Origin: an uncultured Erysipelotrichaceae bacterium
GTDB taxonomy: Bacteria > Bacillota_I > Bacilli_A > Erysipelotrichales > Erysipelotrichaceae
NCBI GenBank assembly: GCA_942492995.1
Contig: OW818653.1
Location: 1,260,001 to 1,292,000, forward strand
Direction: 5' to 3'
DNA: 32,000 nucleotides
In this document: piece after piece, positions 5,210 to 32,000 of the stretch
How the letters are laid out: every line of letters starts with the position of its first letter
How positions within the stretch are numbered: position 1 is the stretch's first letter
Made by a program: the position numbers and the translations under genes
The notes under the pieces: model-generated
Told to the model about the DNA's origin: nothing
The model's database searches: none
What the model saw: only the letters and a program-made list of their open reading frames with translations

Positions 5210-5219
5210 AATGTTTCCT

Positions 5220-5687
5220 TTACTTTGTTAAATCTAAACTGAAATAGGTTGCGCCTTCTAATGGATTTTCATAATAAGATTCAATCTCCTTAAACCCAAA
5301 AGATTGATATAAGCTAATCGCTGGTTTCATTGTATTCAATGTATCGAGAAGGATTTGTTTATATCCAACTTCCTTCGCATCATTAATTACGTGTTGAACG
5401 AGTTTCTTACTCATTCCTAACCCTCTAAATTCAGTACGAATGAATAATCGTTTTAACTCAGCACGTGTATCATCATAACGACGCAAAGCTACACATCCTG
5501 CTAGATGATTATTCCAATACGCTACATAAAGTCGTCCATCCGGTTGTGCATATTTACCAGGCAATGTATCGAGTTCGTACTTGAAGTCTTGAAAACATAA
5601 ATCTACTTCGAGTGATTGTGCGTATTCATTAAATAATAGTTTAATTGATTCAATATCATCGTATGCTGGTTTAATGACTAAATTCAT
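5220..5687 (-). CDS. GNAT family N-acetyltransferase
   Basis: Acetyl-CoA motif RGLGMSKKLV. Start moved to ATG 5687 (MNLVIK) because GAGGTGG sits immediately upstream. The track start at 5699 lies inside that SD. Confidence 0.8.
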   Translation of the reverse strand: MNLVIKPAYDDIESIKLLFNEYAQSLEVDLCFQDFKYELDTLPGKYAQPDGRLYVAYWNNHLAGCVALRRYDDTRAELKRLFIRTEFRGLGMSKKLVQHVINDAKEVGYKQILLDTLNTMKPAISLYQSFGFKEIESYYENPLEGATYFSLDLTK

Positions 5688-18553: not shown

Positions 18554-19513
18554 TTATCCTCCTATTTGACTCATTTGACGAACAATCATTTGATGTTCAT
18601 CGAGTAAATGTTTTTCTGGTTTAACTTGGTAAGCTTCAAGAATTAAAGGTAATATGTCTAAATTAGCTCGTAATGGAGTTTTTAAATCAATTTCAAGATC
18701 ACTGTGTAAACATGGTTTTAATTTACCATCTGGAGTTAATCTCAATCGATTACAATATGCACAGAAATTACATGACAATGGAGAGATTAGACCTACCTTG
18801 CCTCTTGCGCCATCTAATCGATAGTATCGAGCAGGAGATGAAGGATCATCTGATTTTACTGACTTTAGTTCAGGATGATGACTTATGATTAGTTCATTTG
18901 AATAAAAGTGCTTTTTAGCATATGCGACATTACTACCAATCGGCATTAGTTCAATGAAACGCACATCAACGCCCCAATCCTTTGTGAGTTGAATAAAATC
19001 AGTTATTTCATCATCATTGATTCCTCGATTAACGACACAATTTAACTTAACTTTAAGTCCTACATTTAATGCACTGTGTATTCCTTCCAACACATTACGT
19101 AATTGTCCACCACGGCTCATTAATTTATATCGGTCATGATTTAATGTGTCCAAACTGATATTTACACGATGTAACCCAGCTTCTTTTAATGGTTTTGCGA
19201 GCAATTTAAGAAGCACTCCATTGGTAGTCATTGCGATATCATCAAGTTGTTTTAGTTGAGCAACTTTTCGAACAAACTCAACCACATCTTTACGCACTAA
19301 AGGTTCTCCACCTGTAATACGTAATTTCTTTACACCTAAACCAACAAATTTTTCAATTACTGTATATAACTCTTCAAAACTTAGTATTTCTTCGTGTGGC
19401 ATCGATTCTACACCTTCTTCAGGCATACAATAGGTACAACGCAGATTACATCGATCTGTAATTGATACTCTCAGGTACGTTAAATCACGATTAAAACGAT
19501 CAAGCATATTCAA
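18554..19513 (-). CDS. moaA: GTP 3',8-cyclase MoaA (radical SAM)
   Basis: LRVSITDRCNLRCTYCMPEE (CxxxCxxC) and the C-terminal cluster CNFCAYCNRLRLTPDGKLKPCL. Confidence 0.95.
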   Translation of the reverse strand: MNMLDRFNRDLTYLRVSITDRCNLRCTYCMPEEGVESMPHEEILSFEELYTVIEKFVGLGVKKLRITGGEPLVRKDVVEFVRKVAQLKQLDDIAMTTNGVLLKLLAKPLKEAGLHRVNISLDTLNHDRYKLMSRGGQLRNVLEGIHSALNVGLKVKLNCVVNRGINDDEITDFIQLTKDWGVDVRFIELMPIGSNVAYAKKHFYSNELIISHHPELKSVKSDDPSSPARYYRLDGARGKVGLISPLSCNFCAYCNRLRLTPDGKLKPCLHSDLEIDLKTPLRANLDILPLILEAYQVKPEKHLLDEHQMIVRQMSQIGG

Positions 19514-21410
19514 TTACCTCCCCGCAGTTATGTGTATCATAACCACCTAATTCAAAACACTTATCTCTGAACTCATTTGATTTTAAACACTCTAAAAATA
19601 ACTTCATCATGTCAGTTTCAAGAAGTCCTTTACGACATACAAAATCATAGTCCTCTTCACCTAATGGAATAAAATCGCATCCCATTACGTTTGCGGCAGA
19701 ATAAACACCTAATCCACAATCTACTACACCATTTTGTACAGCCGCAGCGACTGCTAAATGTGTATTTAATTCTTTATCATATCCATTAATACTATTTGGA
19801 TTTATATTCTTTTTAGTTAGCCAATAATCAAGTAGAACGCGTGTTCCGGCACCGCGTTGTCGATTCACAAATCGATGATACACTAAATCTTCTATCGTAC
19901 ATATATTTAGTGGATTATCTTTTTTAACAATCAAACCCTGAATTCGTTTAACCCCTTTTATTAACACCATTTCTTCATCTTTGAATAGTTGTTTAATAGT
20001 ATCAATATTATAGGTTCCACTTTGATCAAGTAAGTGTGTCATTGCGATATGTGATTCTTTTCGTTTAAGTGCTAATAATCCAGCATAAGAACCTACATGT
20101 ACACTTGATATATGATAGTGCACATTATTTCTTTCTATCTGTTCTAATTGATTATTTAATACATCCATTACAAGATCATGTGATCCTATTGCCATCAGTG
20201 TATTTTGAATGGTTTGTATCGGTTTATTTAACCAAACCTCAATTCTTTCATTCGATTCTATGCCTTCACTATTCTTATCAATCATTGCGTATCCATCGCT
20301 CTTTACAACAGACATCATCATACCTGCACCACGAGCAAGCGGAGTTGCGATATATTTTCCATCTATATACCCAAGTTTTACACGGATGTATTCTTTACTC
20401 TTTAAACTTGATACGATTCTACGTGTACTTATCGCTTGAATAATCGATGTTTGTTTAACTGGATAATGATTTAATTTCAATAATAATGGTGTAACAAACT
20501 CTTCAAATACGATATGAGCACTAACAGGATAACCAGGAATTCCAATAACCGGTACATTTCCAATTCTGCCTAATATCGCAGGTTTACCTGGTTTTATGGA
20601 TAATCCATGGATGAATACTTCACCTAATTCTTTGATTACAGATGCGGTATAATCTTCTCTTCCCGCTGATGAACCTGCATTAATTAGTACTACGTCATAG
20701 TGTTCAGCCGCAGATTTTACCGCATTTAATAACTCATCATATACATCAGGAATAATCTTTAACGTTGTTGGGATTGAGAATGCTTCTTGTGCCAATCCCA
20801 TAAATAAATACGAATTAGATTCCACAATATCCCCAATATTTACTGAATCATACGCAGACCGTATTTCCGTTCCAGTTGGAATAATCGCTACACTAACTTG
20901 TTTATACACTTCAATATGGAGTTGATTAGCAGCCATAAGAACACTAATATCCATTGGACGTAACACATGTTCCATCGGAAATAAAAGTTCACCTTCTACA
21001 ATATCTTCACCAATTGGTCGCACATTTTCCCACGGGACAACTGATTTAATAATCTGTATCCCATTATCTGTTTCTATGCAATCTTCAACCATAATAACCG
21101 CATCATACGGATCAAGAATAGGATCACCCGTATCTACTTCGATATAGTCATTTACATTAATTAACAGTGGTCTATGTTCATTCGCATCAAATGTTACTCT
21201 CGAATTAATTGCGATTCCATCCATCGCTGAACTTGGATAAAATGGCACACTTCGTTTAGCATAAATTGGTTGCGAAAGTACACGATTTAGAGCGTTTCTA
21301 CTTTCCACAATTTCAATTTTGCGATCCAAATAAATATCTTCTAAGACTTGATTATAGTTTGCCTTAGCTATTTCTAAATCTGTAGACTTAAGATAAAAAG
21401 ATCGTTTCAT
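19500..21410 (-). CDS. moeA: MoeA (metal insertase) fused to a C-terminal periplasmic-binding-protein-like domain
   Basis: 636 aa. The N-terminal ~400 aa is MoeA-like (SAMDGIAI, IPTGTE, INAGSSAGREDY, GIPGYPVSAHIVF). The C-terminal ~230 aa (IGSHDL...NRQRGAGTRVLLD...CGLGV) resembles a type-2 PBP oxyanion-binding fold. Confidence 0.75.
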   Translation of the reverse strand: MKRSFYLKSTDLEIAKANYNQVLEDIYLDRKIEIVESRNALNRVLSQPIYAKRSVPFYPSSAMDGIAINSRVTFDANEHRPLLINVNDYIEVDTGDPILDPYDAVIMVEDCIETDNGIQIIKSVVPWENVRPIGEDIVEGELLFPMEHVLRPMDISVLMAANQLHIEVYKQVSVAIIPTGTEIRSAYDSVNIGDIVESNSYLFMGLAQEAFSIPTTLKIIPDVYDELLNAVKSAAEHYDVVLINAGSSAGREDYTASVIKELGEVFIHGLSIKPGKPAILGRIGNVPVIGIPGYPVSAHIVFEEFVTPLLLKLNHYPVKQTSIIQAISTRRIVSSLKSKEYIRVKLGYIDGKYIATPLARGAGMMMSVVKSDGYAMIDKNSEGIESNERIEVWLNKPIQTIQNTLMAIGSHDLVMDVLNNQLEQIERNNVHYHISSVHVGSYAGLLALKRKESHIAMTHLLDQSGTYNIDTIKQLFKDEEMVLIKGVKRIQGLIVKKDNPLNICTIEDLVYHRFVNRQRGAGTRVLLDYWLTKKNINPNSINGYDKELNTHLAVAAAVQNGVVDCGLGVYSAANVMGCDFIPLGEEDYDFVCRKGLLETDMMKLFLECLKSNEFRDKCFELGGYDTHNCGEVIEYA

Positions 21411-21425
21411 ACAATTCCCCCTTAA

Positions 21426-22649
21426 CTAAATTAATATGACATTTACTAATTCATCCTTTTTATATCCTTCTAAATTACCCGGTACGAAAAGATATGCGTT
21501 AGCCGACAATAATGTAGAAATTAAACCACTCTTTGTGTATACAATACGTGCTCTAGTACAATTATTTTCTTGGTAAACGGTTAAGAAGATAATCGTTTCT
21601 TTACCTTGAGATGAAATTACATTTGTGTCTATTTTTGCGAATATTGAGTTCGTGTTCTGTTCAAATACTTGTTGGAATGATGTTTTGAAAACTCTCTGGA
21701 ATATCGCAAATGCACTCACTGGATGACCAGGTAAACCGATAAGAAGACACTTACCAATAGAGCCTAAAATAGTTGGTTTCCCAGGCTTAACAGCTAAACC
21801 ATGCGACCACACAACATTTTTCCCTAACGATTCAAATATCTTAACCGTGTAATCTTTTTCACCTTGTGAACTCCCGCCACTTACAAATATCACATCAACT
21901 TCTTTACTTAAACGATTAATTGCTTTATTTAGTTGATCAAAATCATCTTGGATTAATAACGTAGAATGTACATTAATGTTTAATTCATTTAATTGAACAG
22001 TTAAAAGAGTTCCATTAATATCATGAACTTGACCTTTTTTTATGGATTGATTTATTGGAAACACTTCATCACCGGTAGAAATGATTGCGGCGTTTAATTT
22101 CGCATAAACTTCTACAGTATCAATTCCAACACCAGCACAAACACCAATAGCTTGAGTAGTTAGACGCTTACCCTTCTCAACAATTACCTGTTTGTAATTT
22201 ATATCTTCACCTGTTCGAATAACATTTTCATTACTCGCAATCGATTTATAAATAAGCACATCATTCGTATTGAATAATTCTGTATACTCAATCATTACAA
22301 CTGCGTCTGCACCTTCTGGCAACATTCCACCAGTTGGCACATATGCACATTCACCAGCATTAATTGTAATAAGTGCTTCTTGTCCCATCGCAATCTTATC
22401 AACACACTTCAGAATTGTTGGCAGTGATTCAGATGCGCCTTGTGTCTCTTTTGAGTGTACTGCATACCCATCTACAGTAGATCGTGTAAAGTTAGGAAGC
22501 ACTTCTGGACTGTATATCGGGGTTGAGACAATACGATTAAGTGCTTGTTCAATACAAATAATCTCGGTTTTACCAAGATGATATTTCTTTAAATGATTTT
22601 TACAATTCACTATAGCATTTTCGACAGTATCAACTTTTAATAGAGCCAT
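21426..22649 (-). CDS. moeA: Molybdopterin molybdenum/tungsten-transferase MoeA (stand-alone)
   Basis: 407 aa. STVDGYAV, VPTGGMLPEGADAVV, VSGGSSQGEKDY and GLPGHPVSAFAIF. Confidence 0.9.
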   Translation of the reverse strand: MALLKVDTVENAIVNCKNHLKKYHLGKTEIICIEQALNRIVSTPIYSPEVLPNFTRSTVDGYAVHSKETQGASESLPTILKCVDKIAMGQEALITINAGECAYVPTGGMLPEGADAVVMIEYTELFNTNDVLIYKSIASNENVIRTGEDINYKQVIVEKGKRLTTQAIGVCAGVGIDTVEVYAKLNAAIISTGDEVFPINQSIKKGQVHDINGTLLTVQLNELNINVHSTLLIQDDFDQLNKAINRLSKEVDVIFVSGGSSQGEKDYTVKIFESLGKNVVWSHGLAVKPGKPTILGSIGKCLLIGLPGHPVSAFAIFQRVFKTSFQQVFEQNTNSIFAKIDTNVISSQGKETIIFLTVYQENNCTRARIVYTKSGLISTLLSANAYLFVPGNLEGYKKDELVNVILI

Positions 22650-22711
22650 TTCAAATCAATTTTATGGTCATAAAAAAACACCAACACCTTTAAATCTAGT
22701 ATAGCACATTG

Positions 22712-22728
22712 AAATGTAAGCGCTTTAT
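22712..22728. promoter_or_regulatory. cre-like operator copy 1 (AAATGTAAGCGCTTTAT) in the divergent moeA / radical-SAM promoter region
   Basis: 17-mer identical to 23862-23878. The core ATGTAAGCGCTTTAT matches 9 of the 10 specified positions of the cre consensus WTGNAANCGNWNNCW. An extended -10 (TGcTATACT, minus strand, ~22697-22705) for the moeA operon lies just beside it. Confidence 0.5.
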
Positions 22729-22780
22729 TAAAAATGTGAAATATCTTGAGTCGATTAATGTTTTGCCCTATAGTAAGATT

Positions 22781-23848
22781 ATGATGAATTTACATATCAA
22801 TGATGATGTCCCAATAAATAAGATTTATCTAGAACTTACACAACGCTGTAATCTTCAATGTAAGAACTGTTTTAGACAGAATTGGACATTACCAGAAACA
22901 CAAATGTCGCAAGAGATTTTTGACAATATACGAAATAGTTTAAACGATATCCCAAGTTTAAAAGAGATTGTGTTAGGTGGAATTGGTGAACCTACGATAC
23001 ATCCTAAATTTGTGGAATGGGTTAAATTACTACCTAATGTTGAACTTAGTGTTACGACTAACGCCTATTATTGGAAAGACGAAACGATTCAATTACTAGC
23101 AGAACGATTTAACCGCATTGTAATTTCTGTCGATGGTTTAGAATCAACATTCTACAAAATACGTAGCTTTGAACTTTCTTTACTTGAACAAAATGTAAAA
23201 CGATTAATCCATATTCGTACATCACTTGGAAAGTATGAACCATTCTTAATTACACAAATTGTATTAAGTACAGACAATGTCGATGAGATTGAAGAACTAA
23301 TCCCAATACTCGCAAAGATGGGATTTATGAAGATTATTATATCTAACTTGTTACCTCAAAACGAGTTAGATAAAGATAAAATACTATACACTTTACATGA
23401 AAATCCAAGAATGACAAAACTTCGTACAACTTGGTTAAATAAAGCTTTATCCAATCAGATTCAAATAAAATTTCCAGCAATACAACTTAAAACAGAAAGA
23501 CGTTGTAACTTCGTACATGATGGAACGCTAACCATAAACAGTGATGGTAATATTGCGCCGTGTTATCGATTTGCACATCCATCCATCGAATATGCATTTG
23601 GTAGACGTAAACAAGTTTATCCTTTCCATTATGGTAATGTCCTTAATCAATCAATTAACGAGATTTGGTTTACACGTTTATATACCGATCTACGCCTGCA
23701 AAACATTCGCAATCGTTTCCCATCATGCCCAGATTGTGATCGGGTGGATTGTTGCGACTACATCAATGACTCACTTTGTGATTGTAGAGGACAGAATCCC
23801 TCATGTGCTGATTGTTTATGGACAAGAGATTTCATTCAATGCATATAA
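22781..23848 (+). CDS. Radical SAM/SPASM-domain maturase associated with tungsten-cofactor oxidoreductases
   Basis: LELTQRCNLQCKNC (CxxxCxxC) and GGIGEPT. The Cys-rich C-terminal SPASM-like region reads CYRF...CPDCDRVDCCDY...CDCRGQNPSCADC. It lies immediately upstream of aor. Start placed at ATG 22781 (MMNLHIN). The SD is weak, so the start is uncertain. Confidence 0.7.
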   Translation: MMNLHINDDVPINKIYLELTQRCNLQCKNCFRQNWTLPETQMSQEIFDNIRNSLNDIPSLKEIVLGGIGEPTIHPKFVEWVKLLPNVELSVTTNAYYWKDETIQLLAERFNRIVISVDGLESTFYKIRSFELSLLEQNVKRLIHIRTSLGKYEPFLITQIVLSTDNVDEIEELIPILAKMGFMKIIISNLLPQNELDKDKILYTLHENPRMTKLRTTWLNKALSNQIQIKFPAIQLKTERRCNFVHDGTLTINSDGNIAPCYRFAHPSIEYAFGRRKQVYPFHYGNVLNQSINEIWFTRLYTDLRLQNIRNRFPSCPDCDRVDCCDYINDSLCDCRGQNPSCADCLWTRDFIQCI

Positions 23849-23852
23849 GACC

Positions 23853-23881
23853 TTTACTTTAAAATGTAAGCGCTTTATAAT
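23853..23881 (+). promoter_or_regulatory. Sigma-A promoter of aor overlapped by cre-like operator copy 2 (23862-23878)
   Basis: TTTACT (23853-23858) - 17 nt - TATAAT (23876-23881). The 17-mer AAATGTAAGCGCTTTAT fills the spacer and runs into the -10. Confidence 0.6.
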
Positions 23882-23887
23882 TAAGTT

Positions 23888-24012
23888 AAGTTCCGAGTTA
23901 TTCACCTCAAAAGGCAAAATAACCGATGGGTTTTATTGGAAACGATAAAGCCTCCCACTCCTTGGAAAGGGACTGCATTTTTAAAATGCGGCCCTGTACA
24001 CCAACACATAAT
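23888..24012 (+). promoter_or_regulatory. Candidate Moco/Tuco (molybdenum/tungsten cofactor) riboswitch aptamer in the aor leader
   Basis: The ~170-nt leader contains blocks I recognise from the Moco RNA motif: CCGAG (23893-23897), AAAGCCTCC (23947-23955) and GGAAAGGG (23964-23971). Local hairpins: GTTATT/AATAAC (23897-23923), CCGAT/ATTGG (23923-23939), TCCC/GGGA (23953-23972). I could not run a covariance model. Confidence 0.55.
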
Positions 24013-24037
24013 ACAAGGGTCGCCCCTTGTTTTTTTA
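24013..24037 (+). terminator. Intrinsic terminator acting as the leader's expression platform, 20 nt before the aor SD
   Basis: CAAGGG (24014-24019) - TCGC - CCCTTG (24024-24029) followed by TTTTTTT. SD AAAGGAGGA at 24047-24055 and ATG at 24058. Confidence 0.75.
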
Positions 24038-24057
24038 TGTTTGACAAAGGAGGAAAT

Positions 24058-25857
24058 ATGTCAACAACTTATAATCTTAAATTGCTTAGAGTCAATCTTA
24101 CTGAAGGAACAATCAAAACTGAAACTTTAGATGAAAAATTGGCTAAAAAATTCTTAGGGGGACGTGGTTTAGGCACTAAAATACTATTCGATGATGGTAT
24201 TGCTAAAGTAGATCCACTATCACCGGAAAACAAGCTTATCTTTATTAATGGACCATTAACTGGTGCTAATGTTCCAACTGGCGGACGTTATATGGTCGTC
24301 ACAAAATCACCTTTGAATAATATGATCGCAAGTTCAAACTCAGGTGGTGTTTGGGGTGCCCGTTTAAAATATGCTGGTTATGATGCACTAATTGTAGAAG
24401 GTAAAGCAAGTAAACCTGTTTATATTTCAATCGATGATGAAAAAGTAGAAATCAAAGATGCGAAAGAATTATGGGGCAAAACTTCTGAACATGTCGAAGA
24501 AACATTGAAAAAAGTTTATGGAGAAGAAGCTTCAGTCTTAAATATCGGTCCTGCAGGAGAAAATCTATCTCTAATGGCTGCGATTATTAATGAAGCGGAT
24601 CGTGCAGCTGGTAGAAGTGGTGTTGGAGCTGTTATGGGATCAAAATTACTAAAAGCTATCGTATGTAAATCAACTCGTACAGTTGTAGAACCTTTCGATA
24701 AAGAAGCATTACGTGAAACAGTTACTCATTCATTAAAACTTATTCGTGATAATGGTGTAACTGGAACTGGATTACCAACGTATGGTACTGCAGTATTAGT
24801 CAATATCATCAATAATATTGGTTCATTCCCAACTAAAAACTGGCAAGAATCAGAATTCGCAAATGCGGAACAAATCAGTGGCGAAACACTAAAAGAAAAA
24901 CATATCGTTAAACAAGGTTTCTGTCACCGCTGTCCTATCGGCTGTGGTCGTGTTATTAATCTAAATGGTAAAGTAGTTGGTGGTCCTGAATATGAACCAC
25001 TATGGGCTTATGGCGCAAACTGTGGTGTTGATAATTTAGAAGCCATCAATGAAGCAAACTATTGGGCTAATGAAATGGGTTTAGATGCGATTAGTTGCCC
25101 TACAACGATTGCGACTGCGATGGAATTGTATCAAAAAGGTTATATTAAAGAAGAAGACTGTGATGGCATACCTCTAGAATTTGGTAGTGCCAAGGCAATC
25201 GTAGAATGGACAAAACGCATTGGATTGGGACATAATAAATTAGCTAAATTAATGGCTCAAGGGTCATATCGTTTATGTGAAGCGTATGGTGTTCCTGAAC
25301 TTTCAATGTCTGTTAAGAAATTAGAAATGCCTGCATATGATGCACGTGGTATCCAAGGGATTGGTTTAAACTATGCGACATCAAATCGTGGTGGATGTCA
25401 TGTACGTGGCTATATGATTTCTCCTGAAATTTTAGGTCTACCTCAACTACTTGATCGTTTTGAAACTAAAGATAAAGCTATTTGGACTAAAACATTCCAA
25501 GATTTAACCGCTGTTATTGACTCAGCTGGTGTTTGTTTATTCACATCATTCGCATTGGGTGCACCAGAATATGCATCAATGATTAATGCGGCAACTGGCA
25601 CAACGTATACACCTGCTCAATTGCTTGAAGTTGGAGAACGTATCTATAATATTGAACGTTTATTTAACAAAGAAGCTGGTATGAAAGCAGAAGATGATCG
25701 TTTGCCAACACGTCTTATGAAAGAACCTATTCCTGCAGGTCCATCAAAAGGTGAAGTAAGTAAGTTGAACATTACATTGCCTGAGTATTACACTGTAAGA
25801 GGTTGGGTTAACGCATTCCCTACTGAGGAAACATTAAAACGTTTAGACTTACTCTAA
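24058..25857 (+). CDS. aor: Tungsten-containing aldehyde:ferredoxin oxidoreductase (AOR family)
   Basis: 599 aa from ATG 24058 (MSTTYNLKLLRVNLTEG...FLGGRGLG). 4Fe-4S ligands CHRCPIGCG, plus SNRGGCH and DSAGVCLF. The track ORF start at 23926 is an upstream artefact covering the leader. Confidence 0.9.
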   Translation: MSTTYNLKLLRVNLTEGTIKTETLDEKLAKKFLGGRGLGTKILFDDGIAKVDPLSPENKLIFINGPLTGANVPTGGRYMVVTKSPLNNMIASSNSGGVWGARLKYAGYDALIVEGKASKPVYISIDDEKVEIKDAKELWGKTSEHVEETLKKVYGEEASVLNIGPAGENLSLMAAIINEADRAAGRSGVGAVMGSKLLKAIVCKSTRTVVEPFDKEALRETVTHSLKLIRDNGVTGTGLPTYGTAVLVNIINNIGSFPTKNWQESEFANAEQISGETLKEKHIVKQGFCHRCPIGCGRVINLNGKVVGGPEYEPLWAYGANCGVDNLEAINEANYWANEMGLDAISCPTTIATAMELYQKGYIKEEDCDGIPLEFGSAKAIVEWTKRIGLGHNKLAKLMAQGSYRLCEAYGVPELSMSVKKLEMPAYDARGIQGIGLNYATSNRGGCHVRGYMISPEILGLPQLLDRFETKDKAIWTKTFQDLTAVIDSAGVCLFTSFALGAPEYASMINAATGTTYTPAQLLEVGERIYNIERLFNKEAGMKAEDDRLPTRLMKEPIPAGPSKGEVSKLNITLPEYYTVRGWVNAFPTEETLKRLDLL

Positions 25858-25872
25858 CCAATAAGGAGATTT

Positions 25873-26094
25873 ATGATTGAAGTTCGACTCTTTGCGTATT
25901 TTCGTGATAATAGAGGTAAAATTCTTCATTTAGATGCGCAAGAATTCCAAACTCCTCAAAGTATACTTAATCATCTTGGAATCGATATCAAAGATGTGGC
26001 TATATTATTAGTTAATGGTAGACATTCTAATGGTGAACATATTTTAAAGGATAGTGACATTGTCGCATTCTTCCCTCCTGTAGCAGGCGGATAA
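25873..26094 (+). CDS. moaD: MoaD/ThiS-family sulfur-carrier protein
   Basis: 73 aa ending in ...FFPPVAGG (C-terminal Gly-Gly). SD AAGGAG at 25862-25867. Confidence 0.8.
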   Translation: MIEVRLFAYFRDNRGKILHLDAQEFQTPQSILNHLGIDIKDVAILLVNGRHSNGEHILKDSDIVAFFPPVAGG

Positions 26095-26095
26095 T

Positions 26096-26133
26096 AAAAA
26101 GGTCTATAATCATTTAATTGGTTATAGACCTTT
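26096..26133. terminator. Bidirectional terminator between moaD and moeB
   Basis: AGGTCTATAA (26100-26109) pairs with TTATAGACCT (26122-26131). It is flanked by an A-run and a T-rich tract. The right arm overlaps the last moeB codons. Confidence 0.7.
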
Positions 26134-26940
26134 ATTATGTTTGGTACCACAAAGTATACATTCTTCATTTCTATTGATTTGAATTTCTTCAAATTCGCAA
26201 TCCAATCCATCGAATGTTAGTAATCTACCTAACATTAACTGTCCTGCATCTGTAATTAATTTAATTACTTCAAGCGCTTGGAGTGAACCGATAACACCGG
26301 TAATTGCGCCAAGTATACCAATTTCATTACAGGTTGGGAATTCATGACCTTCGTTATTATTTGGATATAAACAACGATAACACGGCGTTTGATCAGGGAT
26401 GATTGTTGTAAGTATTCCGCTAAATCCAACGACAGCCCCTTCTATAAGTGGCTTTTTTAGTTTATAACATGTGTCTGTTATTAAATAGCGAACTTTGATT
26501 GTATCTACCGCATCCACAATCACATCATATGTTTCAAATATTCCTTCAATATTATCTACTTTCAATTCAATATTATGTTCGATGATTTGTATATTGGGAT
26601 TTAAACGCGATAACTTTTCTTTTGCGGATACTGTTTTTAATGACTCCAAGTCATCAGATGAATGTAGAATCTGTCGATTTAAGTTAGAAAGCTTTATCAC
26701 ATCGTAATCCACAATTCCGAGTGTCCCAACACCAGCCGCAGCTAAATAGTAAAGGATTGGTGATCCAAGTCCTCCAGCTCCACAAACACATACTCTTGCG
26801 TTCTTTAATTTTTCTTGTCCCTCTATCCCAATATCTTTTAAAATCATTTGCCTATGATAACGTATAGAATCATTATTATTTAGTTTATCCATGTTCATAC
26901 CTTTAGATTCATTATAATTTTTAGTATTCTTTAAACTCAT
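26122..26940 (-). CDS. moeB: MoeB/ThiF-family adenylyltransferase (E1-like) for the sulfur carrier
   Basis: RYHRQMIL, GAGGLGSP (ATP loop), NLNRQIL, and zinc CxxC pairs (CYRC ... CILC). No C-terminal rhodanese domain. The start could also be the MNMDKL Met. Confidence 0.8.
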   Translation of the reverse strand: MSLKNTKNYNESKGMNMDKLNNNDSIRYHRQMILKDIGIEGQEKLKNARVCVCGAGGLGSPILYYLAAAGVGTLGIVDYDVIKLSNLNRQILHSSDDLESLKTVSAKEKLSRLNPNIQIIEHNIELKVDNIEGIFETYDVIVDAVDTIKVRYLITDTCYKLKKPLIEGAVVGFSGILTTIIPDQTPCYRCLYPNNNEGHEFPTCNEIGILGAITGVIGSLQALEVIKLITDAGQLMLGRLLTFDGLDCEFEEIQINRNEECILCGTKHNKGL

Positions 26941-26981
26941 TTTACACCATTAAAGTAATTGATTATACTTAATCGAACTAT

Positions 26982-27002
26982 AAAAAAAGCACTTTCGTGC
27001 TT
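26982..27002 (-). terminator. Intrinsic terminator downstream of cueP
   Basis: Minus strand reads AAGCAC-GAAA-GTGCTT followed by TTTTTTTA (plus-strand arms 26987-26992 and 26997-27002). Confidence 0.7.
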
Positions 27003-27094
27003 ATGTAAACATTCCCTATATAACCATACCAATTAGATGTAATTTCAAAAGGGGGAGTTTTGTATATCAATATGGTTTGTTAGGTAAATAGTGA

Positions 27095-27664
27095 TTAGAA
27101 TTTTATTGGTTCAAGTTTTAATGGTGTAGTAATACATGTATCACTTTCACTAAAGGTAGAGATAGGATATTCAACAGTCAAACCATCATAATCGACTTTT
27201 AATGTAGCTTTAATTCCTTTTGGCAACCATATTCCAATAAACCCATTATCCTGAGTAGTACGCTCTTCATCAATAATAATCTGATTGTTTTCATCGACAA
27301 TTCTAACTCTCATGGTTTGATTGAATATTTCACCACGACATGAAACTAAATTATGAATGGTACATGGGTGTACTTCATTAATATATGGTGCGATAGACAC
27401 AAAGAAAGAATCCGTAGGCAAGTCTAGACTATATTCCTTTTCATTATCATATAGAAATAGTTTATCTCCTGTAATTCGTGCCCCAACATGTGTAGGTTCA
27501 TCAATTCTTTGATCAAGATTATTCACTACTTCTTTAATTTCTGTATTTTCTAAATCAAGTTGTTTTAATACTTTGTTTACACCACTTGGTAACGAAAGAA
27601 ACCAAACTGATACGCTTATAAATACAATTCCTAAAATAATGATTAACCCAAGTTTATTTTTCAT
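27095..27664 (-). CDS. cueP: CueP-family metal (copper)-binding protein with an N-terminal membrane anchor
   Basis: 189 aa. FFVSIAPYINEVHPCTIHNLVSCRGE ... DNGFIGIWLPKG ... SDTCITTPL follows the pattern I recall for CueP (APY..xH.C..H.L..CRGE, NGFIG.WLP, D.TCIT). Confidence 0.7.
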   Translation of the reverse strand: MKNKLGLIIILGIVFISVSVWFLSLPSGVNKVLKQLDLENTEIKEVVNNLDQRIDEPTHVGARITGDKLFLYDNEKEYSLDLPTDSFFVSIAPYINEVHPCTIHNLVSCRGEIFNQTMRVRIVDENNQIIIDEERTTQDNGFIGIWLPKGIKATLKVDYDGLTVEYPISTFSESDTCITTPLKLEPIKF

Positions 27665-27696
27665 TGTTCAACCCTCATTTATAGTTTAAAGGTTGG

Positions 27697-27716
27697 ATAT
27701 GTAGAACTTATGAAGA
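27697..27716 (-). promoter_or_regulatory. Direct-repeat response-regulator box (a) upstream of cueP
   Basis: Minus strand reads TCTTCATAAGT TCTACATAT, two half-sites 11 bp apart. TTCTAC lies 17 nt upstream of TATAAA (27683-27678). It overlaps the HK stop codon. Confidence 0.55.
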
Positions 27717-29108
27717 TTGTTTAATTGGAAGTATTATCGTGAAAGTAGACCCAACATTTAACTCACTTTCAACTTTAATGGTTCCTTTATGTGCTTCAAC
27801 GAGTTGTTTAACAATGGTTAAACCAATACCACTACCTCCGCTCTCACGTGTCCTGGAAGAATCTACTCGATAGAAACGTTCAAATATATAAGGTAATGAT
27901 TCTTCTGGTATGCCTATACCTGTATCTGATATTTGAATTAAGATGTTATTGTCCATTTTATTAACATTGATTTTCAGTTTCGCATTTTCATTTGAGTAAT
28001 TATATGCATTCAAAATCAAGTTATATAGCACCTGATAAATTCGACTTCGATCAGCTTGGATATTAAGTGGTATTGAGTTTAGTTCGATTGAAATAGATTG
28101 ACTTGTTTGTTTGAACTCAAGTGATTTTAAACATTCCTTAATAAGTTCATTGATATCAAATTCAGTTAGTTCTAGCTTATTGGTTAATTGTTCAATCTGA
28201 GTTAATTGTTCTAAATCTTTCACAATTCTTGTCAATTGTAATATTTCATCATGAATGCTCTTTAATCGATTATCATCCATCTTAATAATTCCATCCATAA
28301 TAGCTTCAACACTTATTTGAAGTGTTGATAAAGGTGTTCTTAGTTCATGTGCTACATCTGAAGTAATTTGTTTCTTTATACGATCTTGTTCATAAAGATT
28401 TATCGATAAGTGATTTATCGAATCAATCAACTCACTAACTTCATTAATATTTGTTTTATATTCAATCTCACTTCCGTAATGTCCATTCGCAATATTCTTC
28501 GTCGCATCAATCGTCTTTAAGATTGGTCTACTAAGTGTCTTCGCAAAGAGCACACCAACAACTACACTTGATAATATGCTTGTTAATGCAATGATCAATA
28601 AAACTGATTGAAGTTGGTTAATAAATATTACATCATCCTCTTGATAGAAATAAGGTCCGAAATAACTAATTGTGACTTTGCCTACATCCGTATTTTTGTA
28701 CTCAAGCAAATAATCATATGACACAAATTCACCTTTTTGAGTTGGAAATTGCGTTAACATACGATGTGAAATATCATTTATCAACTGTACACAAGCACTC
28801 ATATCCCAAACTTCCGCATCCCAAATAGAACTATTCTCGTTATCATAGACTTTTATAATATAACCACTATATAACGCTAGCATGCCTACTTCATGTACTT
28901 TTTCATTATCCCAAGACGAACGATTAACATCATACTGTAGTGATACTTGGGCAATAATTTGATTAATTGTTTGCGTTTGTTTATCAATAATATAATCTTT
29001 GAATCGATCATGGATAAAATAGCTCGATATTGAACTTACTAATCCAACCGCAACTAAAACAGTTAATACAATAACAGATGTAAGTTTACGACTTAAAGAT
29101 TGTTTCAT
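27708..29108 (-). CDS. Sensor histidine kinase (two TM segments, ~140-aa extracytoplasmic loop, HAMP, HisKA, HATPase)
   Basis: H-box SDVAHELRTPLS, N-box LILNAYNYS, G-boxes DTGIGI and GGSGIGL. Confidence 0.9.
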   Translation of the reverse strand: MKQSLSRKLTSVIVLTVLVAVGLVSSISSYFIHDRFKDYIIDKQTQTINQIIAQVSLQYDVNRSSWDNEKVHEVGMLALYSGYIIKVYDNENSSIWDAEVWDMSACVQLINDISHRMLTQFPTQKGEFVSYDYLLEYKNTDVGKVTISYFGPYFYQEDDVIFINQLQSVLLIIALTSILSSVVVGVLFAKTLSRPILKTIDATKNIANGHYGSEIEYKTNINEVSELIDSINHLSINLYEQDRIKKQITSDVAHELRTPLSTLQISVEAIMDGIIKMDDNRLKSIHDEILQLTRIVKDLEQLTQIEQLTNKLELTEFDINELIKECLKSLEFKQTSQSISIELNSIPLNIQADRSRIYQVLYNLILNAYNYSNENAKLKINVNKMDNNILIQISDTGIGIPEESLPYIFERFYRVDSSRTRESGGSGIGLTIVKQLVEAHKGTIKVESELNVGSTFTIILPIKQSS

Positions 29109-29800
29109 GTTAAAGACCCGAATCGATAACCTAAACCAAATACTGTTTGTATGTACATTGGTTTCTTTGGATTATCTTCAATTTTATTTCTTAAATTTTT
29201 AATATGCGTATCGATTGTACGATCATAACCATCAAAATCTGATCCAAACGCATAATCTACCAATTCTACTCGATTAAATACTCTATTTGGATGATGGATT
29301 AATACAGTTAATAGACGAAATTCATTAGGGGTTAAATGTATTTCAACATTATTTTTAAGTACACTTTTCTTATTCAAATCAATCTCTAATCCTCCATCAA
29401 ATTTCATGATTTGATATAGTGGTAAAATGGATGATTCTGATCGTCTTAGTACTGTCTCAACACGCGCATTCAATTCTTTCAAACTAAATGGCTTTGTGAT
29501 ATAGTCATCTGCCCCAAGTTTCAATCCATCAATAATGTTTTCTTCTGTCGAACGTGCAGTTAACATAATAATCGGCACTCTCGAAAATTGTCGTATTGTT
29601 TGACATACTTGTTCACCACTTAATTTTGGAATCATTAAATCAAGTAACACTAATGAAAAAGTTAAGTCTTTTGCGAGTGCAACTGCGCTAACTCCATCAT
29701 GTGTAGTGACAATATTAAAACCTTGATGCTCGAAATTCGCTTTAAGTATTTCGACAAGTTTTATTTCATCTTCAACAATCAGGATTGTTTTATTTTCCAT
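29105..29800 (-). CDS. OmpR/PhoB-family response regulator
   Basis: Receiver domain ILIVEDE...LLDLMIP...TA and winged-helix C-terminus LTPNEFRLL...VFGLGYRF. Start moved to ATG 29800 (MENKTILIVEDE), preceded by GAGG. The 4-nt overlap with the HK gene suggests translational coupling. Confidence 0.9.
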   Translation of the reverse strand: MENKTILIVEDEIKLVEILKANFEHQGFNIVTTHDGVSAVALAKDLTFSLVLLDLMIPKLSGEQVCQTIRQFSRVPIIMLTARSTEENIIDGLKLGADDYITKPFSLKELNARVETVLRRSESSILPLYQIMKFDGGLEIDLNKKSVLKNNVEIHLTPNEFRLLTVLIHHPNRVFNRVELVDYAFGSDFDGYDRTIDTHIKNLRNKIEDNPKKPMYIQTVFGLGYRFGSLT

Positions 29801-29821
29801 TCGTATAACCTCATTTAATGC

Positions 29822-29850
29822 ATTAATGCCCAACTAGGTTGAGCATTAAT
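29822..29850 (-). other. 13-bp-arm hairpin/palindrome between the lipoprotein stop and the response-regulator SD
   Basis: ATTAATGCCCAAC (29822-29834) - TAG - GTTGAGCATTAAT (29838-29850), with one mismatch and no T-tract after it on the minus strand. Confidence 0.5.
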
Positions 29851-29880
29851 ACGATTTATAACTACACTTCAATTATTGAT

Positions 29881-30582
29881 TTATTTACCGTTAATATCAA
29901 ATGGTTTTAATAGTTTATCAACCATTACCATTTTACCGTTTTCATCCATTATCTCAACTTGTGCAAATACCCAACCTTCAACAGATTCAACATCAACACC
30001 AGCATCAACAAATGTCTGTGGATTTAATACAAACACAATATCTTTATCGTTAGTCGTAAAGTCTTTAGCCCATTCAAATACATTCCCATTACCGAAACTT
30101 AACCCATAATGATCAAGTGCTGCATGATAGCCCACTAAAGTAGGATCAATTCTGAATACTGATTCAAATGCTGGAACTACATCTTGAACATTAACGCCTT
30201 CATTCCCTAAATCATATCCAAATACAATCTTATTATCAACAAACATTCCTTCTGGCAATAAGGCAGTATCTAATCCTGCGTTAATAAAAGGTGTCGCTTC
30301 AATCTCCATTTTATAGTCGTATGGAGTTGTGAATGCGATGTCTGATGATATCGAGAATACAACTTGATTGTCTGGTGAAGTTAGTGTGTAAAATCTACTT
30401 TCATCTACAAGTTGGAAACTTACGTAATTCGCCATATCTCCAAACGCTATAATTGATGGATCTTTTTCATCAACTGGTGTTTCTACTACAGGTGTCTCTA
30501 CTACAGGTTCTTCATCTACCTTAGCAGTACATGCGCCTAATGTTAAAACTAACAAAATGGCTAAAATAATCATTCTTTTCAT
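29881..30582 (-). CDS. Uncharacterised lipoprotein (no family recognised)
   Basis: MKRMIILAILLVLTLGAC lipobox, then a PVVETPVVETPV linker. SD GAGGGAG lies 7 nt upstream. No motif that I can assign. Confidence 0.6.
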   Translation of the reverse strand: MKRMIILAILLVLTLGACTAKVDEEPVVETPVVETPVDEKDPSIIAFGDMANYVSFQLVDESRFYTLTSPDNQVVFSISSDIAFTTPYDYKMEIEATPFINAGLDTALLPEGMFVDNKIVFGYDLGNEGVNVQDVVPAFESVFRIDPTLVGYHAALDHYGLSFGNGNVFEWAKDFTTNDKDIVFVLNPQTFVDAGVDVESVEGWVFAQVEIMDENGKMVMVDKLLKPFDINGK

Positions 30583-30628
30583 GTTTTGTCTCCCTCAGTT
30601 TTCACTGCTTATAAACAATAACATAGAA

Positions 30629-30648
30629 ATATGTAGAACTTATGTAGA
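30629..30648 (-). promoter_or_regulatory. Direct-repeat response-regulator box (b) upstream of the lipoprotein gene
   Basis: Minus strand reads TCTACATAAGT TCTACATAT. TTCTAC lies 19 nt upstream of TATAAG (30613-30608). 16 nt are identical to box (a). Confidence 0.55.
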
Positions 30649-30683
30649 TATGCTTTTTTAGATATCATGCATAATTATGAATT

Positions 30684-30703
30684 CCTTCATAATTTCTACA
30701 TAA
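30684..30703 (+). promoter_or_regulatory. Direct-repeat response-regulator box (c) upstream of the micro-ORF
   Basis: Plus strand reads CCTTCATAATT TCTACATAA. TTCTAC lies 18 nt upstream of TAGAGT (30718-30723). Confidence 0.5.
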
Positions 30704-30743
30704 TATTTCGTTAGATTTAGAGTGTAAATAAGGAGGTGATTTA

Positions 30744-30839
30744 ATGTTAGGTTTAGCACTTGCGAATTGCATACATACTTGTGGACTACGTGGACAAGCA
30801 TTAGCTGATTGTATTCAAATGATGATTCATGGTATGTAG
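30744..30839 (+). CDS. Unannotated 31-aa Cys/His/Met-containing micro-protein
   Basis: Not in the ORF track. AAGGAGGTG (30729-30737) lies 6 nt before the ATG. Own translation: MLGLALANCIHTCGLRGQALADCIQMMIHGM, then stop. An in-frame TAA sits at 30729-30731. A dedicated terminator lies 27 nt downstream. Confidence 0.55.
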   Translation: MLGLALANCIHTCGLRGQALADCIQMMIHGM

Positions 30840-30865
30840 TCTTTATAAATATTAAGCGTTATAAG

Positions 30866-30897
30866 AAAAATTCATTCGTTTATAGAATGAATTTTTT
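30866..30897. terminator. Bidirectional intrinsic terminator (micro-ORF / SHOCT gene)
   Basis: AAAAATTCATTC (30866-30877) - GTTTATA - GAATGAATTTTT (30885-30896). The A-run and T-run form part of the arms. Confidence 0.8.
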
Positions 30898-30900
30898 AAT

Positions 30901-31632
30901 TTATTTAAGTGTACTTGTAATCTGTAAGAACTCTTCACGTGTGATTTCACCTCGTGCATAACGTTCTTTCGCAATATTCAACGCATTGTTAGTCGTTGGT
31001 TGACCTTGATTTCTATTATTAGAAGAAACTAAATAAACCACAGCCCCAATCACAATTGCGAATCCTAAGAATCCCATAAACATTCCTCCTGAACCAAAGT
31101 TCATCATTCGATTATTTCCATAGTCTTGTGCATAAGCAAAGCTATCATCATTACGATTATAGCGATAATTGCGACCCATCATTCCATAGTTTTGGTCTGT
31201 ATTATACCCATCATTACGATATCCACGCATCATTGGTCCAATTTGTCCATACGAATTGGTTTGATCATCACTATATCCATATTGCATAAATGTCATCATT
31301 GTAATTGGATAACCATTTAAATAATCAGCTCCAATTTGAGTATGCAAGTTGGTTAATGTTTCTGAATCATCACCACCATAATATTCATCAAGTGCTTCAT
31401 GTTGTTCAGAATCTCCAATATACGCTTCCATTACGGAATCACCAAGTTCTTCAAGTAATACTTCATCAACTAGATTAACATCAATCGCATCATTAACTGT
31501 AATCCCTAAATCAGTTCTAATTTCTGAAACAATTGCGTCAACTGAACGCATAGGTGTTTCTAATGCGCTAACACCAATAACAGTTGTTAATAGAAAAGCG
31601 ACAATAAACAATGAGGTTAATATTTTTTTCAT
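30901..31632 (-). CDS. Membrane protein: signal/anchor, acidic ectodomain, Met/Tyr/Asn/Gly-rich low-complexity tract, TM helix, C-terminal SHOCT domain
   Basis: 243 aa. The low-complexity tract reads MMTFMQYGY...GPMMRGYRNDGYNTDQNYGMMGRNYRYNRND...NNRMMNFGSGGMFMG. TM helix FLGFAIVIGAVVYLV. The SHOCT-like tail is AKERYARGEITREEFLQI. Confidence 0.65.
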   Translation of the reverse strand: MKKILTSLFIVAFLLTTVIGVSALETPMRSVDAIVSEIRTDLGITVNDAIDVNLVDEVLLEELGDSVMEAYIGDSEQHEALDEYYGGDDSETLTNLHTQIGADYLNGYPITMMTFMQYGYSDDQTNSYGQIGPMMRGYRNDGYNTDQNYGMMGRNYRYNRNDDSFAYAQDYGNNRMMNFGSGGMFMGFLGFAIVIGAVVYLVSSNNRNQGQPTTNNALNIAKERYARGEITREEFLQITSTLK

Positions 31633-31644
31633 TTATCTCCCTTC

Positions 31645-31908
31645 CTACAAACTCTTTCGAATTGTATCGTATTCTTCTTTTGTAATCTCACCTTTAGCAT
31701 ATCGTTCATTAAGGATTTCTATACTTCGATTACTCGTTTGAGATACAACATTCTTATTTGAACGATTCATCAATGTTTTAATTAGCCAAACGATTCCAAC
31801 AATAACTAGAACGATAATAATTAAACAAACTAACATTCCAAACCAACCAAAGTTGCCCATCATTCCAAATCTTGAAAATGCTTGACCACCACTAAATCCT
31901 CTCATCAT
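31645..31908 (-). CDS. Small SHOCT-domain membrane protein with a Met/Gly/Phe-rich N-terminus
   Basis: 87 aa. MMRGFSGGQAFSRFGMMGNFGWFGM, then TM helix LVCLIIIVLVIVGIVWLI, then LNERYAKGEITKEEYDTI (SHOCT). Confidence 0.7.
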   Translation of the reverse strand: MMRGFSGGQAFSRFGMMGNFGWFGMLVCLIIIVLVIVGIVWLIKTLMNRSNKNVVSQTSNRSIEILNERYAKGEITKEEYDTIRKSL

Positions 31909-32000
31909 ATGTTTACCCTCATATAAAAGTTTAACTTTTATATTATTTTAACTTTCCGTCATATCTCTCTGACATCTGTATCTTAACAGTCAATTGTTAC

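Follow-up and report, generated by a model that had tools for sequence, protein, structure and literature searches.

According to reviews, Firmicutes sense copper in the cytoplasm only, via CsoR or CopY (PMC10141476, PMC9470648), and in the literature that we searched no paper was found on a two-component system (TCS) of the type considered here in Firmicutes. Here we analyze a 32,000-nt stretch from an uncultured Erysipelotrichaceae bacterium (assembly GCA_942492995.1, contig OW818653.1, positions 1,260,001 to 1,292,000), referred to below as the window. In it a direct-repeat box occurs 5′ of cueP, 5′ of an operon encoding a lipoprotein, an OmpR/PhoB-class response regulator (RR) and a sensor histidine kinase (HK), and 5′ of a gene for a micro-protein of 31 amino acids (aa). 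We regard the boxes as a genuine regulatory signal and predict that they mark an uncharacterised, metal- or copper-linked OmpR-type two-component regulon. Probably, they are operators of the RR, which would activate cueP, the lipoprotein-RR-HK operon and the micro-protein gene, the kinase most likely sensing copper.

Several described systems come close to this one. In Corynebacterium glutamicum the targets of the OmpR-type regulator CopR, an activator, are the operon that encodes it and a divergent copper operon. The CopR site, TGAAGATTTgaTGAAGATTT (complement AAATCTTCAtcAAATCTTCA), has been proven by electrophoretic mobility shift assay and mutagenesis (PMC3140484). In Corynebacterium crenatum cueP and copS are CopR-dependent (PMC11124244). 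For BaeSR of Escherichia coli and Salmonella, a BaeR consensus, TCTNCANAA, is quoted in PMC3799227, and published titles and abstracts describe a response to several stresses including metals. The system autoregulates, and its regulon consists of RND/MdtABC pumps, AcrD and Spy. In Salmonella a CueP-family protein is under the envelope-sensing OmpR-type TCS CpxR/CpxA (PMC9470648); cueP also needs the cytoplasmic MerR-type sensor CueR there, and CpxRA is a general stress system.

The proteobacterial systems CusRS, CopRS, PcoRS and SilRS combine extracytoplasmic metal sensing by a kinase with two transmembrane (TM) segments, an OmpR-type regulator, autoregulation and adjacent copper genes. The CusR box is a site of the inverted-repeat type. 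The pho box bound by PhoB is a tandem array of direct repeats (11-bp period); its distance to the -10, ~10 bp on the 5′ side, is fixed, and there is no -35. Once phosphorylated, OmpR/PhoB regulators generally dimerize head to tail on such tandem repeats, and from this position they activate promoters that lack a -35.

Three Boxes in the Window

The box consists of two 9-bp half-sites in direct repeat with an 11-bp period, TCTTCATAA-gt-TCTACATA. This layout is kept in at least 54 sites and bears out the sequence-only reading, which had described half-sites 11 bp apart in a tandem repeat of the OmpR/PhoB type. Boxes (a) and (b) lie on the minus strand, and box (c), on the plus strand, is divergent from box (b) (Table 1). 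By direct check all three were found at the positions and on the strands that the sequence-only reading had given, and the 16 consecutive nucleotides that it saw in common between boxes (a) and (b) are there as well.

A degenerate pattern, TCTWCATANNTTCTACATA, had three matches in the window at up to two mismatches against 0.04 expected from 100 dinucleotide shuffles, of which none (0/100) reached three. Allowing three mismatches added one match, at 14623, which is at chance level. A 34-nt matrix covering the box plus the downstream -10 part, derived from 18 sites, also had three matches in the window and none in reversed-sequence controls.

The distal half-site of box (a), TCT-TCA-TAA (27708–27716, minus strand), is at once the 3′ end of the kinase coding sequence, Ser-Ser followed by the stop codon. 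This overlap of the kinase 3′ end with the box (…TCTTCATAA) is also present in five related loci (L081, L084, L085, L087 and L089), which suggests that operator and kinase C-terminus are under mutual constraint.

Promoter Architecture

To keep the analysis of the downstream sequence non-circular, sites were detected by the box part of the matrix alone, and TAnnnT was then scored at each downstream offset. The hexamer was found exactly 9 nt 3′ of the box in 51 of 54 unique, independent sites from related loci, while every other offset was occupied in at most 5 of the 54. The conserved -10 begins 12 nt after TTCTAC, that is, 9 nt after the box, and the general form of the operator is TCTTCATAAnnTCTNCAYA-N9-TAnnnT. 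At orthologous cueP promoters the hexamer reads TAAAAT, TAAACT, TAGAAT or TAAGAT. Counted from the predicted start, the cueP leader in the window is ~12 nt long and starts at the Shine-Dalgarno (SD) sequence GAGGG.

The promoter spacing has therefore had to be revised. The -10 hexamers proposed earlier, TATAAA, TATAAG and TAGAGT at 17–19 nt after TTCTAC, correspond to offsets 14–16, which hold in 4, 4 and 0 of the 54 sites, and TTCTAC as a -35 with a -10 at that distance is ruled out because these offsets are not conserved. TATAAA as the cueP -10 would moreover place the transcription start within the SD sequence. The earlier spacing also fails in L087, where the cueP ATG follows the conserved hexamer by 6 nt, with no space for a later -10 (TAAGAT-ggtcac-ATG, L087 8387–8429, the same in L088). 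A leaderless cueP mRNA from the internal promoter is accordingly predicted for that locus.

A usable -35 is absent from the window promoters, as the position implied by a 17-nt spacer reads ATAAGT. Given the fixed 9-nt distance to the -10 and the missing -35, the box appears to replace the -35 as the pho box does, and an operator ~10 bp 5′ of the -10 in place of a -35 is what the box sites display. The box region is predicted to span ~-40 to -22 relative to the predicted start, an activator-dependent, pho-box-like geometry.

Since the box overlaps the place where a -35 would be, the RR might instead act as a repressor, with the boxes blocking RNA polymerase until a signal frees the RR. Some OmpR-family regulators do repress from -35-overlapping positions. 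In the window, however, there is no usable -35 to cover and the -10 hexamers are mostly imperfect, so that little transcription would be expected from them unless an activator helps. The constancy of the -10 distance (51 of 54 sites) points the same way, a strict distance phased by one helical turn being a hallmark of class II activation as known from PhoB. Finally, the homologous regulators CopR (PMC3140484) and BaeR (PMC3799227) work as activators from sites of this kind. We consider repression improbable.

Boxes at Related Loci

Homologs of the kinase form a graded series from 100% down to ~42% identity, from sources named Erysipelothrix, Erysipelotrichaceae and various Clostridia. Loci of close relatives were taken one at a time. 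Those at 97, 84, 80, 70, 63 and 54% kinase identity have the same RR-HK core, which is set among copper genes in all of them except the 97% relative. The fullest gene order (L084 and L085) runs from the micro-ORF (open reading frame; minus strand) through copA-csoR-DUF2933-HMA/DsbD-copZ-copZ and lipoprotein-RR-HK-cueP to ThiF-ThiS-aldehyde:ferredoxin oxidoreductase. What the window and the 97% relative (L089) have in common with these loci is the right flank or the core; the copA…copZ block is missing from both, so that the micro-ORF is directly divergent from the lipoprotein operon, an arrangement that occurs independently in L093–L095. The block is absent from window positions 30649–30683, and in the 70–84% relatives it lies between the micro-ORF and the lipoprotein gene (L084 1–5500, L085 550–5500). 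The boxes at copA and at the lipoprotein gene are co-oriented direct repeats, so the block could have been lost by recombination between the two. Box (b) is followed by a leader, gcagtgaaaactgagggaga, with homology to that of the lipoprotein gene in L084, which identifies box (b) as the lipoprotein operon's own box.

In the close relatives a box stands 5′ of cueP, always at the kinase stop codon (HK/cueP junction of L081, L084, L085, L087 and L089). It also stands 5′ of the lipoprotein gene (L084, L085, L087 and L093–L095) or, where that gene is absent, directly 5′ of the RR gene (L082/L083). Copper genes carry it as well: it is found 5′ of copA-csoR-DUF2933-HMA/DsbD-copZ in L081, L082, L085 and L096–L100, 5′ of HMA-DsbD or CopA in L006, L007, L011, L012, L015, L019, L028 and L105, and in L087 also 5′ of a copZ gene. 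A gene for a 57-aa SHOCT protein in L087 has a box, too. The Acetoanaerobium locus (L105) has one box at the head of HMA-DsbD-CopA-lipoprotein-RR-HK.

The sequence-only reading had proposed a search for the box at orthologous cueP/TCS loci as a check, and this search found it 5′ of cueP, the lipoprotein gene, the RR gene and the micro-ORF at 54–97% kinase identity. The suggestion that box (b) makes the lipoprotein-RR-HK operon autoregulated is well supported by the orthologous boxes 5′ of the lipoprotein or RR gene. The idea of a compact local regulon stood in part. The regulon is shared across relatives, but it is not only local: it includes copA-csoR-HMA/DsbD-copZ, copZ and SHOCT genes, and the box also occurs at micro-protein genes with no TCS within 5 kb.

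The boxes are kept at orthologous positions although synonymous divergence is saturated. This conservation, the fixed distance to the -10, the three matches against 0.04 expected and the zero control matches all speak against the idea that the boxes arose by chance or are remnants of repetitive or mobile DNA without any function in regulation. Nothing beyond the AT-richness of the genome favors such an origin; its probability is next to nil, and we take it to be already refuted by the comparative data.

Distant loci, that is, relatives at ≤44% kinase identity, come from the matches listed in a profile search of genome contigs, and this scope applies to all counts for them and for the comparison loci. 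In 455 kb of distant loci with a full-length kinase match (30–44% identity) the 34-nt matrix had 25–31 matches, and none in the reversed-sequence controls. In 410 kb of comparison loci, where the kinase matches in the catalytic core only, it had three. Box-bearing distant loci come from Clostridia, Lutispora, Ruminiclostridium and Anaerosolibacter; two Paenibacillus loci and an Anaerolinea metagenome-assembled genome (MAG) with a box belong to the comparison group. Matches at the distant loci are co-oriented with the TCS in 26 cases versus 2, many of them just after the kinase stop codon. The genes that follow encode HMA-DsbD membrane proteins, CopA, RRs and small secreted or membrane proteins, the last including FtrD-like (PF10080), cupredoxin-like, YtkA-like, DUF6803 and DUF2680 proteins and one NlpC/P60 protein. 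In Clostridia and Paenibacillus, HMA-DsbD, CopA and secreted proteins associated with metals are encoded 3′ of the box. A further look at 18 distant loci without strong matches revealed no box; in L003, the sole locus inspected, the operon start lies beyond the DNA covered, so that this negative carries no information.

This distribution also bears on whether the boxes are bound by another OmpR-family regulator encoded elsewhere, the adjacency of the TCS being incidental. The DNA-binding domain of the RR is not distinctive at the sequence level, and the box is also found far from any TCS (L103). Against this, the box co-occurs with the RR/HK lineage from Erysipelotrichaceae to Clostridia, Paenibacillus and the Anaerolinea MAG, and it lies 5′ of the TCS operon or at the kinase stop with the strong bias in orientation given above. 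It is also much rarer where only the catalytic core of the kinase matches (3 matches in 410 kb versus 25 in 455 kb for the full-length relatives). Binding by a different OmpR-family regulator is thus very unlikely.

Comparison With Described Systems

With the proven CopR site the window box has the TCTTCA core and the 11-bp period in common (PMC3140484). The flanks of the CopR direct repeat, TGAAGATTTnnTGAAGATTT (= AAATCTTCAnnAAATCTTCA), differ from those of the window box (TAAGT/TATCC), and the boxes of Clostridia (TCTTCATAAAATCTTCACA) approach the CopR-type AAATCTTCA in flanking bases. Proteins were compared with those of a Corynebacterium plasmid cop island (L101), standing in for C. glutamicum CopR and CopS. 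On this island an RR-HK pair is divergent from cueP and a multicopper oxidase gene, with AAATCTTTgccAAATCTTTa in between. Its CopR-like RR is 41% identical to the window RR, no better than PhoB, RegX3 or MtrA, and its kinase aligns with the window kinase only from HAMP onward, at 29% identity. Orthology to Corynebacterium CopRS was thus found neither for the RR nor for the HK, both compared as plasmid proteins, nor in the short sensor loop: CopS of C. glutamicum has a short periplasmic loop (PMC3140484), as opposed to the conserved domain of ~130 aa in the window kinase. The systems differ in layout, too. C. glutamicum has one CopR site per genome and the window system several promoters; the CopR site lies 266–285 bp upstream of the mapped cg3286 start (PMC3140484) and the window box 9 bp from the -10. 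Unlike in the window system, no lipoprotein or micro-protein partner is described for Corynebacterium CopRS.

The likeness to BaeSR is closest in the half-site. As a sequence match only, and relative to the consensus quoted in PMC3799227, the window half-sites TCTTCATAA and TCTACATAt fit TCTNCANAA at 9/9 and 8/9 positions, and the half-site also resembles TTTTTCTCCATDATTGGC from the same paper. BaeS is the best-scoring full-length model for the kinase, BaeR is among the top solved relatives of the RR, and BaeSR autoregulates, as is proposed for the window system. The BaeSR regulon, in contrast, does not consist of CopA, CueP or HMA proteins, and the window sensor domain alone has no BaeS similarity.

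Curated family assignment of the RR and HK was judged by NCBIfam cutoff scores in bits, and none of the named families was reached. The kinase scored 244.6 and 211.2 against the BaeS models NF012163 (cutoff 500) and NF007837 (cutoff 603) and 181.2 against the heavy-metal HK model TIGR01386 (cutoff 292.55). The RR scored 186.4 against BaeR (NF007982, cutoff 380) and 158.6 against the heavy-metal RR model TIGR01387 (cutoff 279.2). Its top match, PhoB, gave 212.7 and was below the cutoff of 296.2. Scores for the Cu/Ag equivalogs NF007345 and NF007346 were 137.9 (cutoff 423) and 140.8 (cutoff 420). The curated cutoffs, together with the search with the sensor domain, rule out filing the system under the CusRS/CopRS heavy-metal family or BaeSR. 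On sequence comparison, the system appears to work in the manner of CopRS or BaeSR, yet membership in either family cannot be demonstrated.

Three other systems differ from that of the window in defined ways. CusRS, CopRS, PcoRS and SilRS of Proteobacteria have RND pumps and periplasmic oxidases as outputs, and the inverted CusR site is unlike the window direct repeat. The pho box differs in half-site sequence and PhoB in its regulon. Unlike that of Salmonella, the window cueP lies inside the TCS operon and has its own box.

The signal deserves separate consideration, since the same operator and regulator could serve a BaeSR-like sensor of general envelope, thiol or multi-metal stress and not of copper itself. 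BaeS as the best full-length kinase model, though under cutoff, would fit such a sensor, as would the half-site that equals the BaeR consensus and the multi-stress response, metals included, of BaeSR. The distant regulon also has NlpC/P60, FtrD-like, DUF6803 and DUF2680 proteins. On the other side, the most regular companions of box and TCS are genes of copper-specific types, namely a P1B ATPase with HMA domains, CsoR, CopZ, CueP, HMA-DsbD and a multicopper-oxidase-like gene. The scores also fall far short of the BaeS and BaeR cutoffs, and the sensor domain lacks BaeS similarity. A general stress signal therefore seems unlikely, if less so than the other alternatives.

The Lipoprotein and the Micro-Protein

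As expected of a bacterial lipoprotein, the 233-aa protein has a lipobox (MKRMIILAILLVLTLGAC) at the end of its signal peptide, and all 24 homologs compared keep Cys18. Its family comprises 1236 homologs, none of them named; no full-length match has a Pfam domain, and no NCBIfam model matched the window protein. The invariant residues include Tyr152, His153, Asp157, His158, Glu170, Trp171, Asp179, Asp181, Glu210 and Met212. The AlphaFold model is confident (predicted local distance difference test, pLDDT, 84.7), and a Foldseek search with it against the PDB gave no match (best E 0.15). Because a homolog lies directly 5′ of the RR gene in 14 of the 16 distant loci bearing one, among the matches listed, and also in L105, lipoprotein-RR-HK appears to be a conserved module, and the lipoprotein is a plausible accessory sensor or metal-binding partner. 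It seems dispensable for the TCS in some lineages, as L082 and L083 have no lipoprotein gene and L081 has only a frameshifted remnant (C-terminal third) fused behind the start of a copZ-like gene (5004–5256). TCS, boxes, cueP and the micro-protein gene are intact in L081 despite this.

The micro-protein, MLGLALANCIHTCGLRGQALADCIQMMIHGM, contains three Cys, two His and four Met. Orthologs of the micro-ORF were found in all Erysipelotrichaceae-type loci covering the region and in 11 metagenome loci, and the pairwise ratio of nonsynonymous to synonymous divergence (dN/dS) is 0.09–0.20 with synonymous sites near saturation, which argues for a real gene. An exhaustive search of 1.84 billion representatives yielded only seven clusters, with proteins of 29–31 aa that are all labelled "hypothetical" and have the consensus MxGLxLAxCIHxCGxxGQxLAxCIxMM; no Pfam or NCBIfam model matched. 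With three Cys, His and Met-Met as potential ligands, the micro-protein may bind Cu(I).

The box and the 9-nt gap lie 5′ of the micro-protein gene in every lineage but one (L091/L092). L103 has a divergent micro-protein gene with a box and no TCS within 5 kb. L104 (5001–6117) has such a gene with the box TCTCCATAATTTCGACACA-N9-TATAAT, and 128 nt 3′ of it a gene for a 297-aa Cu-oxidase_3 (multicopper-oxidase-like) protein. By its gene context L104 is a further independent copper association of the micro-protein. A related motif occurs in P0241, a protein of 416 aa from a JGI metagenome ('hypothetical'), which has six tandem repeats NCxH(L/M)CCGLTG(Q/K)ALxDC; the spacers in between end with KR or KK. 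The repeats are 58% identical to the micro-protein core CIHxCGxxGQxLAxC (E 5e-14). P0241 looks like a precursor with dibasic processing sites.

Genes and Other Elements of the Locus

The coordinates of the genes, boxes and predicted promoter elements are collected in Table 1. Domain matches, the lipobox and an ORF check agree with the genes as first called (cueP, RR, HK, the 233-aa lipoprotein and the 31-codon ORF).

Table 1. Features of the TCS-cueP locus by position in the window; -10 elements and transcription starts are predictions.
Feature	Position	Strand	Basis or remark
Terminator-like hairpin, operon end 3′ of cueP	26987..27002	-	
cueP, CueP-family metal-binding protein, membrane-anchored or secreted, 189 aa	27095..27664	-	PF21172, NF038094
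Predicted -10 of internal cueP promoter, TAAACT	27683..27688	-	9 nt after box (a); predicted start near 27676
Box (a), TCTTCATAAGTTCTACATA	27698..27716	-	Direct sequence check
Sensor histidine kinase, 466 aa	27708..29108	-	HAMP, HisKA, HATPase_c
OmpR/PhoB-class response regulator, 231 aa	29105..29800	-	Recognition helix DRTIDTHIKNLRNKIE
Stem-loop between lipoprotein and RR genes	29820..29852	-	z -3.6; conserved in L084, L085
Lipoprotein, 233 aa, first gene of TCS operon	29881..30582	-	Lipobox, invariant Cys18
Predicted -10 of lipoprotein operon promoter, TATTGT	30615..30620	-	Fixed offset; predicted start near 30608
Box (b), TCTACATAAGTTCTACATA	30630..30648	-	Direct sequence check
Box (c), CCTTCATAATTTCTACATA	30684..30702	+	Divergent from box (b)
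Predicted -10 of micro-protein promoter, TAGATT	30712..30717	+	Fixed offset; predicted start near 30724
Micro-protein gene, 31 aa	30744..30839	+	Orthologs, dN/dS
AU-rich hairpin and U-run, micro-protein gene terminator	30865..30897	+	-12.6 kcal/mol, z -3.0

The cueP product belongs to the CueP family, with 153 bits against PF21172 (E 5e-45, cutoff 27) and 155 bits against NF038094 (cutoff 60); it scored below the Salmonella-type equivalog NF038095 (139.4, cutoff 195). In the kinase, two TM segments surround the extracytoplasmic domain of ~130 aa, followed by HAMP, HisKA and HATPase_c, and His72, Met76, Met103, Cys106 and Met117 of the sensor domain are invariant. The RR has a receiver domain (PF00072, E 1.3e-27) and a winged-helix Trans_reg_C domain (PF00486, E 4.3e-26), which place it in the OmpR/PhoB class, and its full-length structure matches are RegX3, MtrA and BaeR. 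The recognition helix, DRTIDTHIKNLRxKIE, is nearly invariant across the RR family.

The stem-loop between the lipoprotein and RR genes has a 13–15 bp stem with the core GCUCAAC-nnn-GUUGAGC; L087 has a C>U/G>A change in it that is compensatory. As the stem is not followed by a U-tract, it does not qualify as a canonical terminator. The element may act in mRNA processing or stability and so set the ratio of lipoprotein to RR/HK, or it may be a palindromic protein-binding site. An Rfam search of 26900–32000 returned no family.

The micro-protein gene terminator sits tail-to-tail with a SHOCT gene. Two SHOCT-domain membrane proteins (243 and 87 aa) are encoded on the minus strand at 30901–31908, tail-to-tail with the micro-ORF. 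These SHOCT genes have no box, likewise in L089, whereas the 57-aa SHOCT gene beside copZ in L087 has one, which suggests a loose association of SHOCT proteins with the copper locus.

On the other side, ThiF/MoeB-like, ThiS/MoaD-like, aldehyde:ferredoxin oxidoreductase, radical SAM and MoeA genes (19500–26940) flank the TCS-cueP unit. This neighborhood of tungsten/molybdenum cofactor type is syntenic in L084 and L085. Salmonella BaeSR is tied to tungstate in the title of PMC3160322; the coincidence here of a tungsten/molybdenum neighborhood with a BaeR-like half-site may well be fortuitous.

Discussion

In the mechanism that we propose, the phosphorylated RR would bind each box as a head-to-tail dimer on the two 9-bp half-sites (TCTNCANAA type) and from there, at ~-40 to -22, would recruit RNA polymerase like PhoB at the pho box. 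The kinase would sense copper or a copper-like stress outside the cytoplasm via its ~130-aa domain, possibly through the five invariant residues. The promoter at box (b) would transcribe the lipoprotein-RR-HK operon, with positive autoregulation and read-through into cueP. Box (a), an internal promoter overlapping the kinase stop, would provide extra cueP expression, and the divergent promoter at box (c) would serve the Cys/His/Met-rich micro-protein. RR binding, activation rather than repression, the transcription starts and copper as the signal are all inferred from sequence.

Several points weigh against operators of a copper-sensing TCS. As the RR and HK miss the cutoffs of every named family, the heavy-metal TCS models and BaeSR included, function cannot be transferred to them by orthology. 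The sensor domain of the kinase, searched alone, matched no NCBIfam model and had no hit at E ≤ 1. Kinship cannot be read from the RR DNA-binding domain alone, which is equally similar to OmpR, BaeR, RegX3 and PhoB (all at 60–64 bits). Among the distant regulon members, the NlpC/P60, DUF6803 and DUF2680 proteins have no obvious copper role, and no copper exporter adjoins the system within the window. Lastly, L091 (3880–4000, the same in L092) has a decayed box 5′ of the micro-ORF, reduced to a single half-site, TCTACATA; the distal half-site is missing, as is TAnnnT at the expected offset. No other exception to the association of box and micro-ORF was found.

We further suggest, tentatively and with more doubt than confidence, that extracytoplasmic copper sensing of this kind is widespread and unrecognised in anaerobic Firmicutes. 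The lipoprotein, whose fold is unknown, would form its core together with an OmpR-type RR and a kinase of novel sensor type. The most constant output would be the micro-proteins of ~30 residues with their Cys3/His/Met2 set, possibly binding Cu(I) as a minimal chaperone or buffer or modulating a copper exporter.

Taken together, the locus and its relatives point to a second, TCS-driven layer of copper sensing in Erysipelotrichaceae, Clostridia and Paenibacillus. The defined operator permits prediction of the regulon in any genome of these groups. It also gives a likely copper context to three unannotated parts, namely a large lipoprotein family, a kinase sensor domain with an invariant His/Met/Cys set and a micro-protein of ~30 aa. 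The interest thus lies less in the box than in the copper-linked sensing module that it reveals, with its two unannotated protein families.

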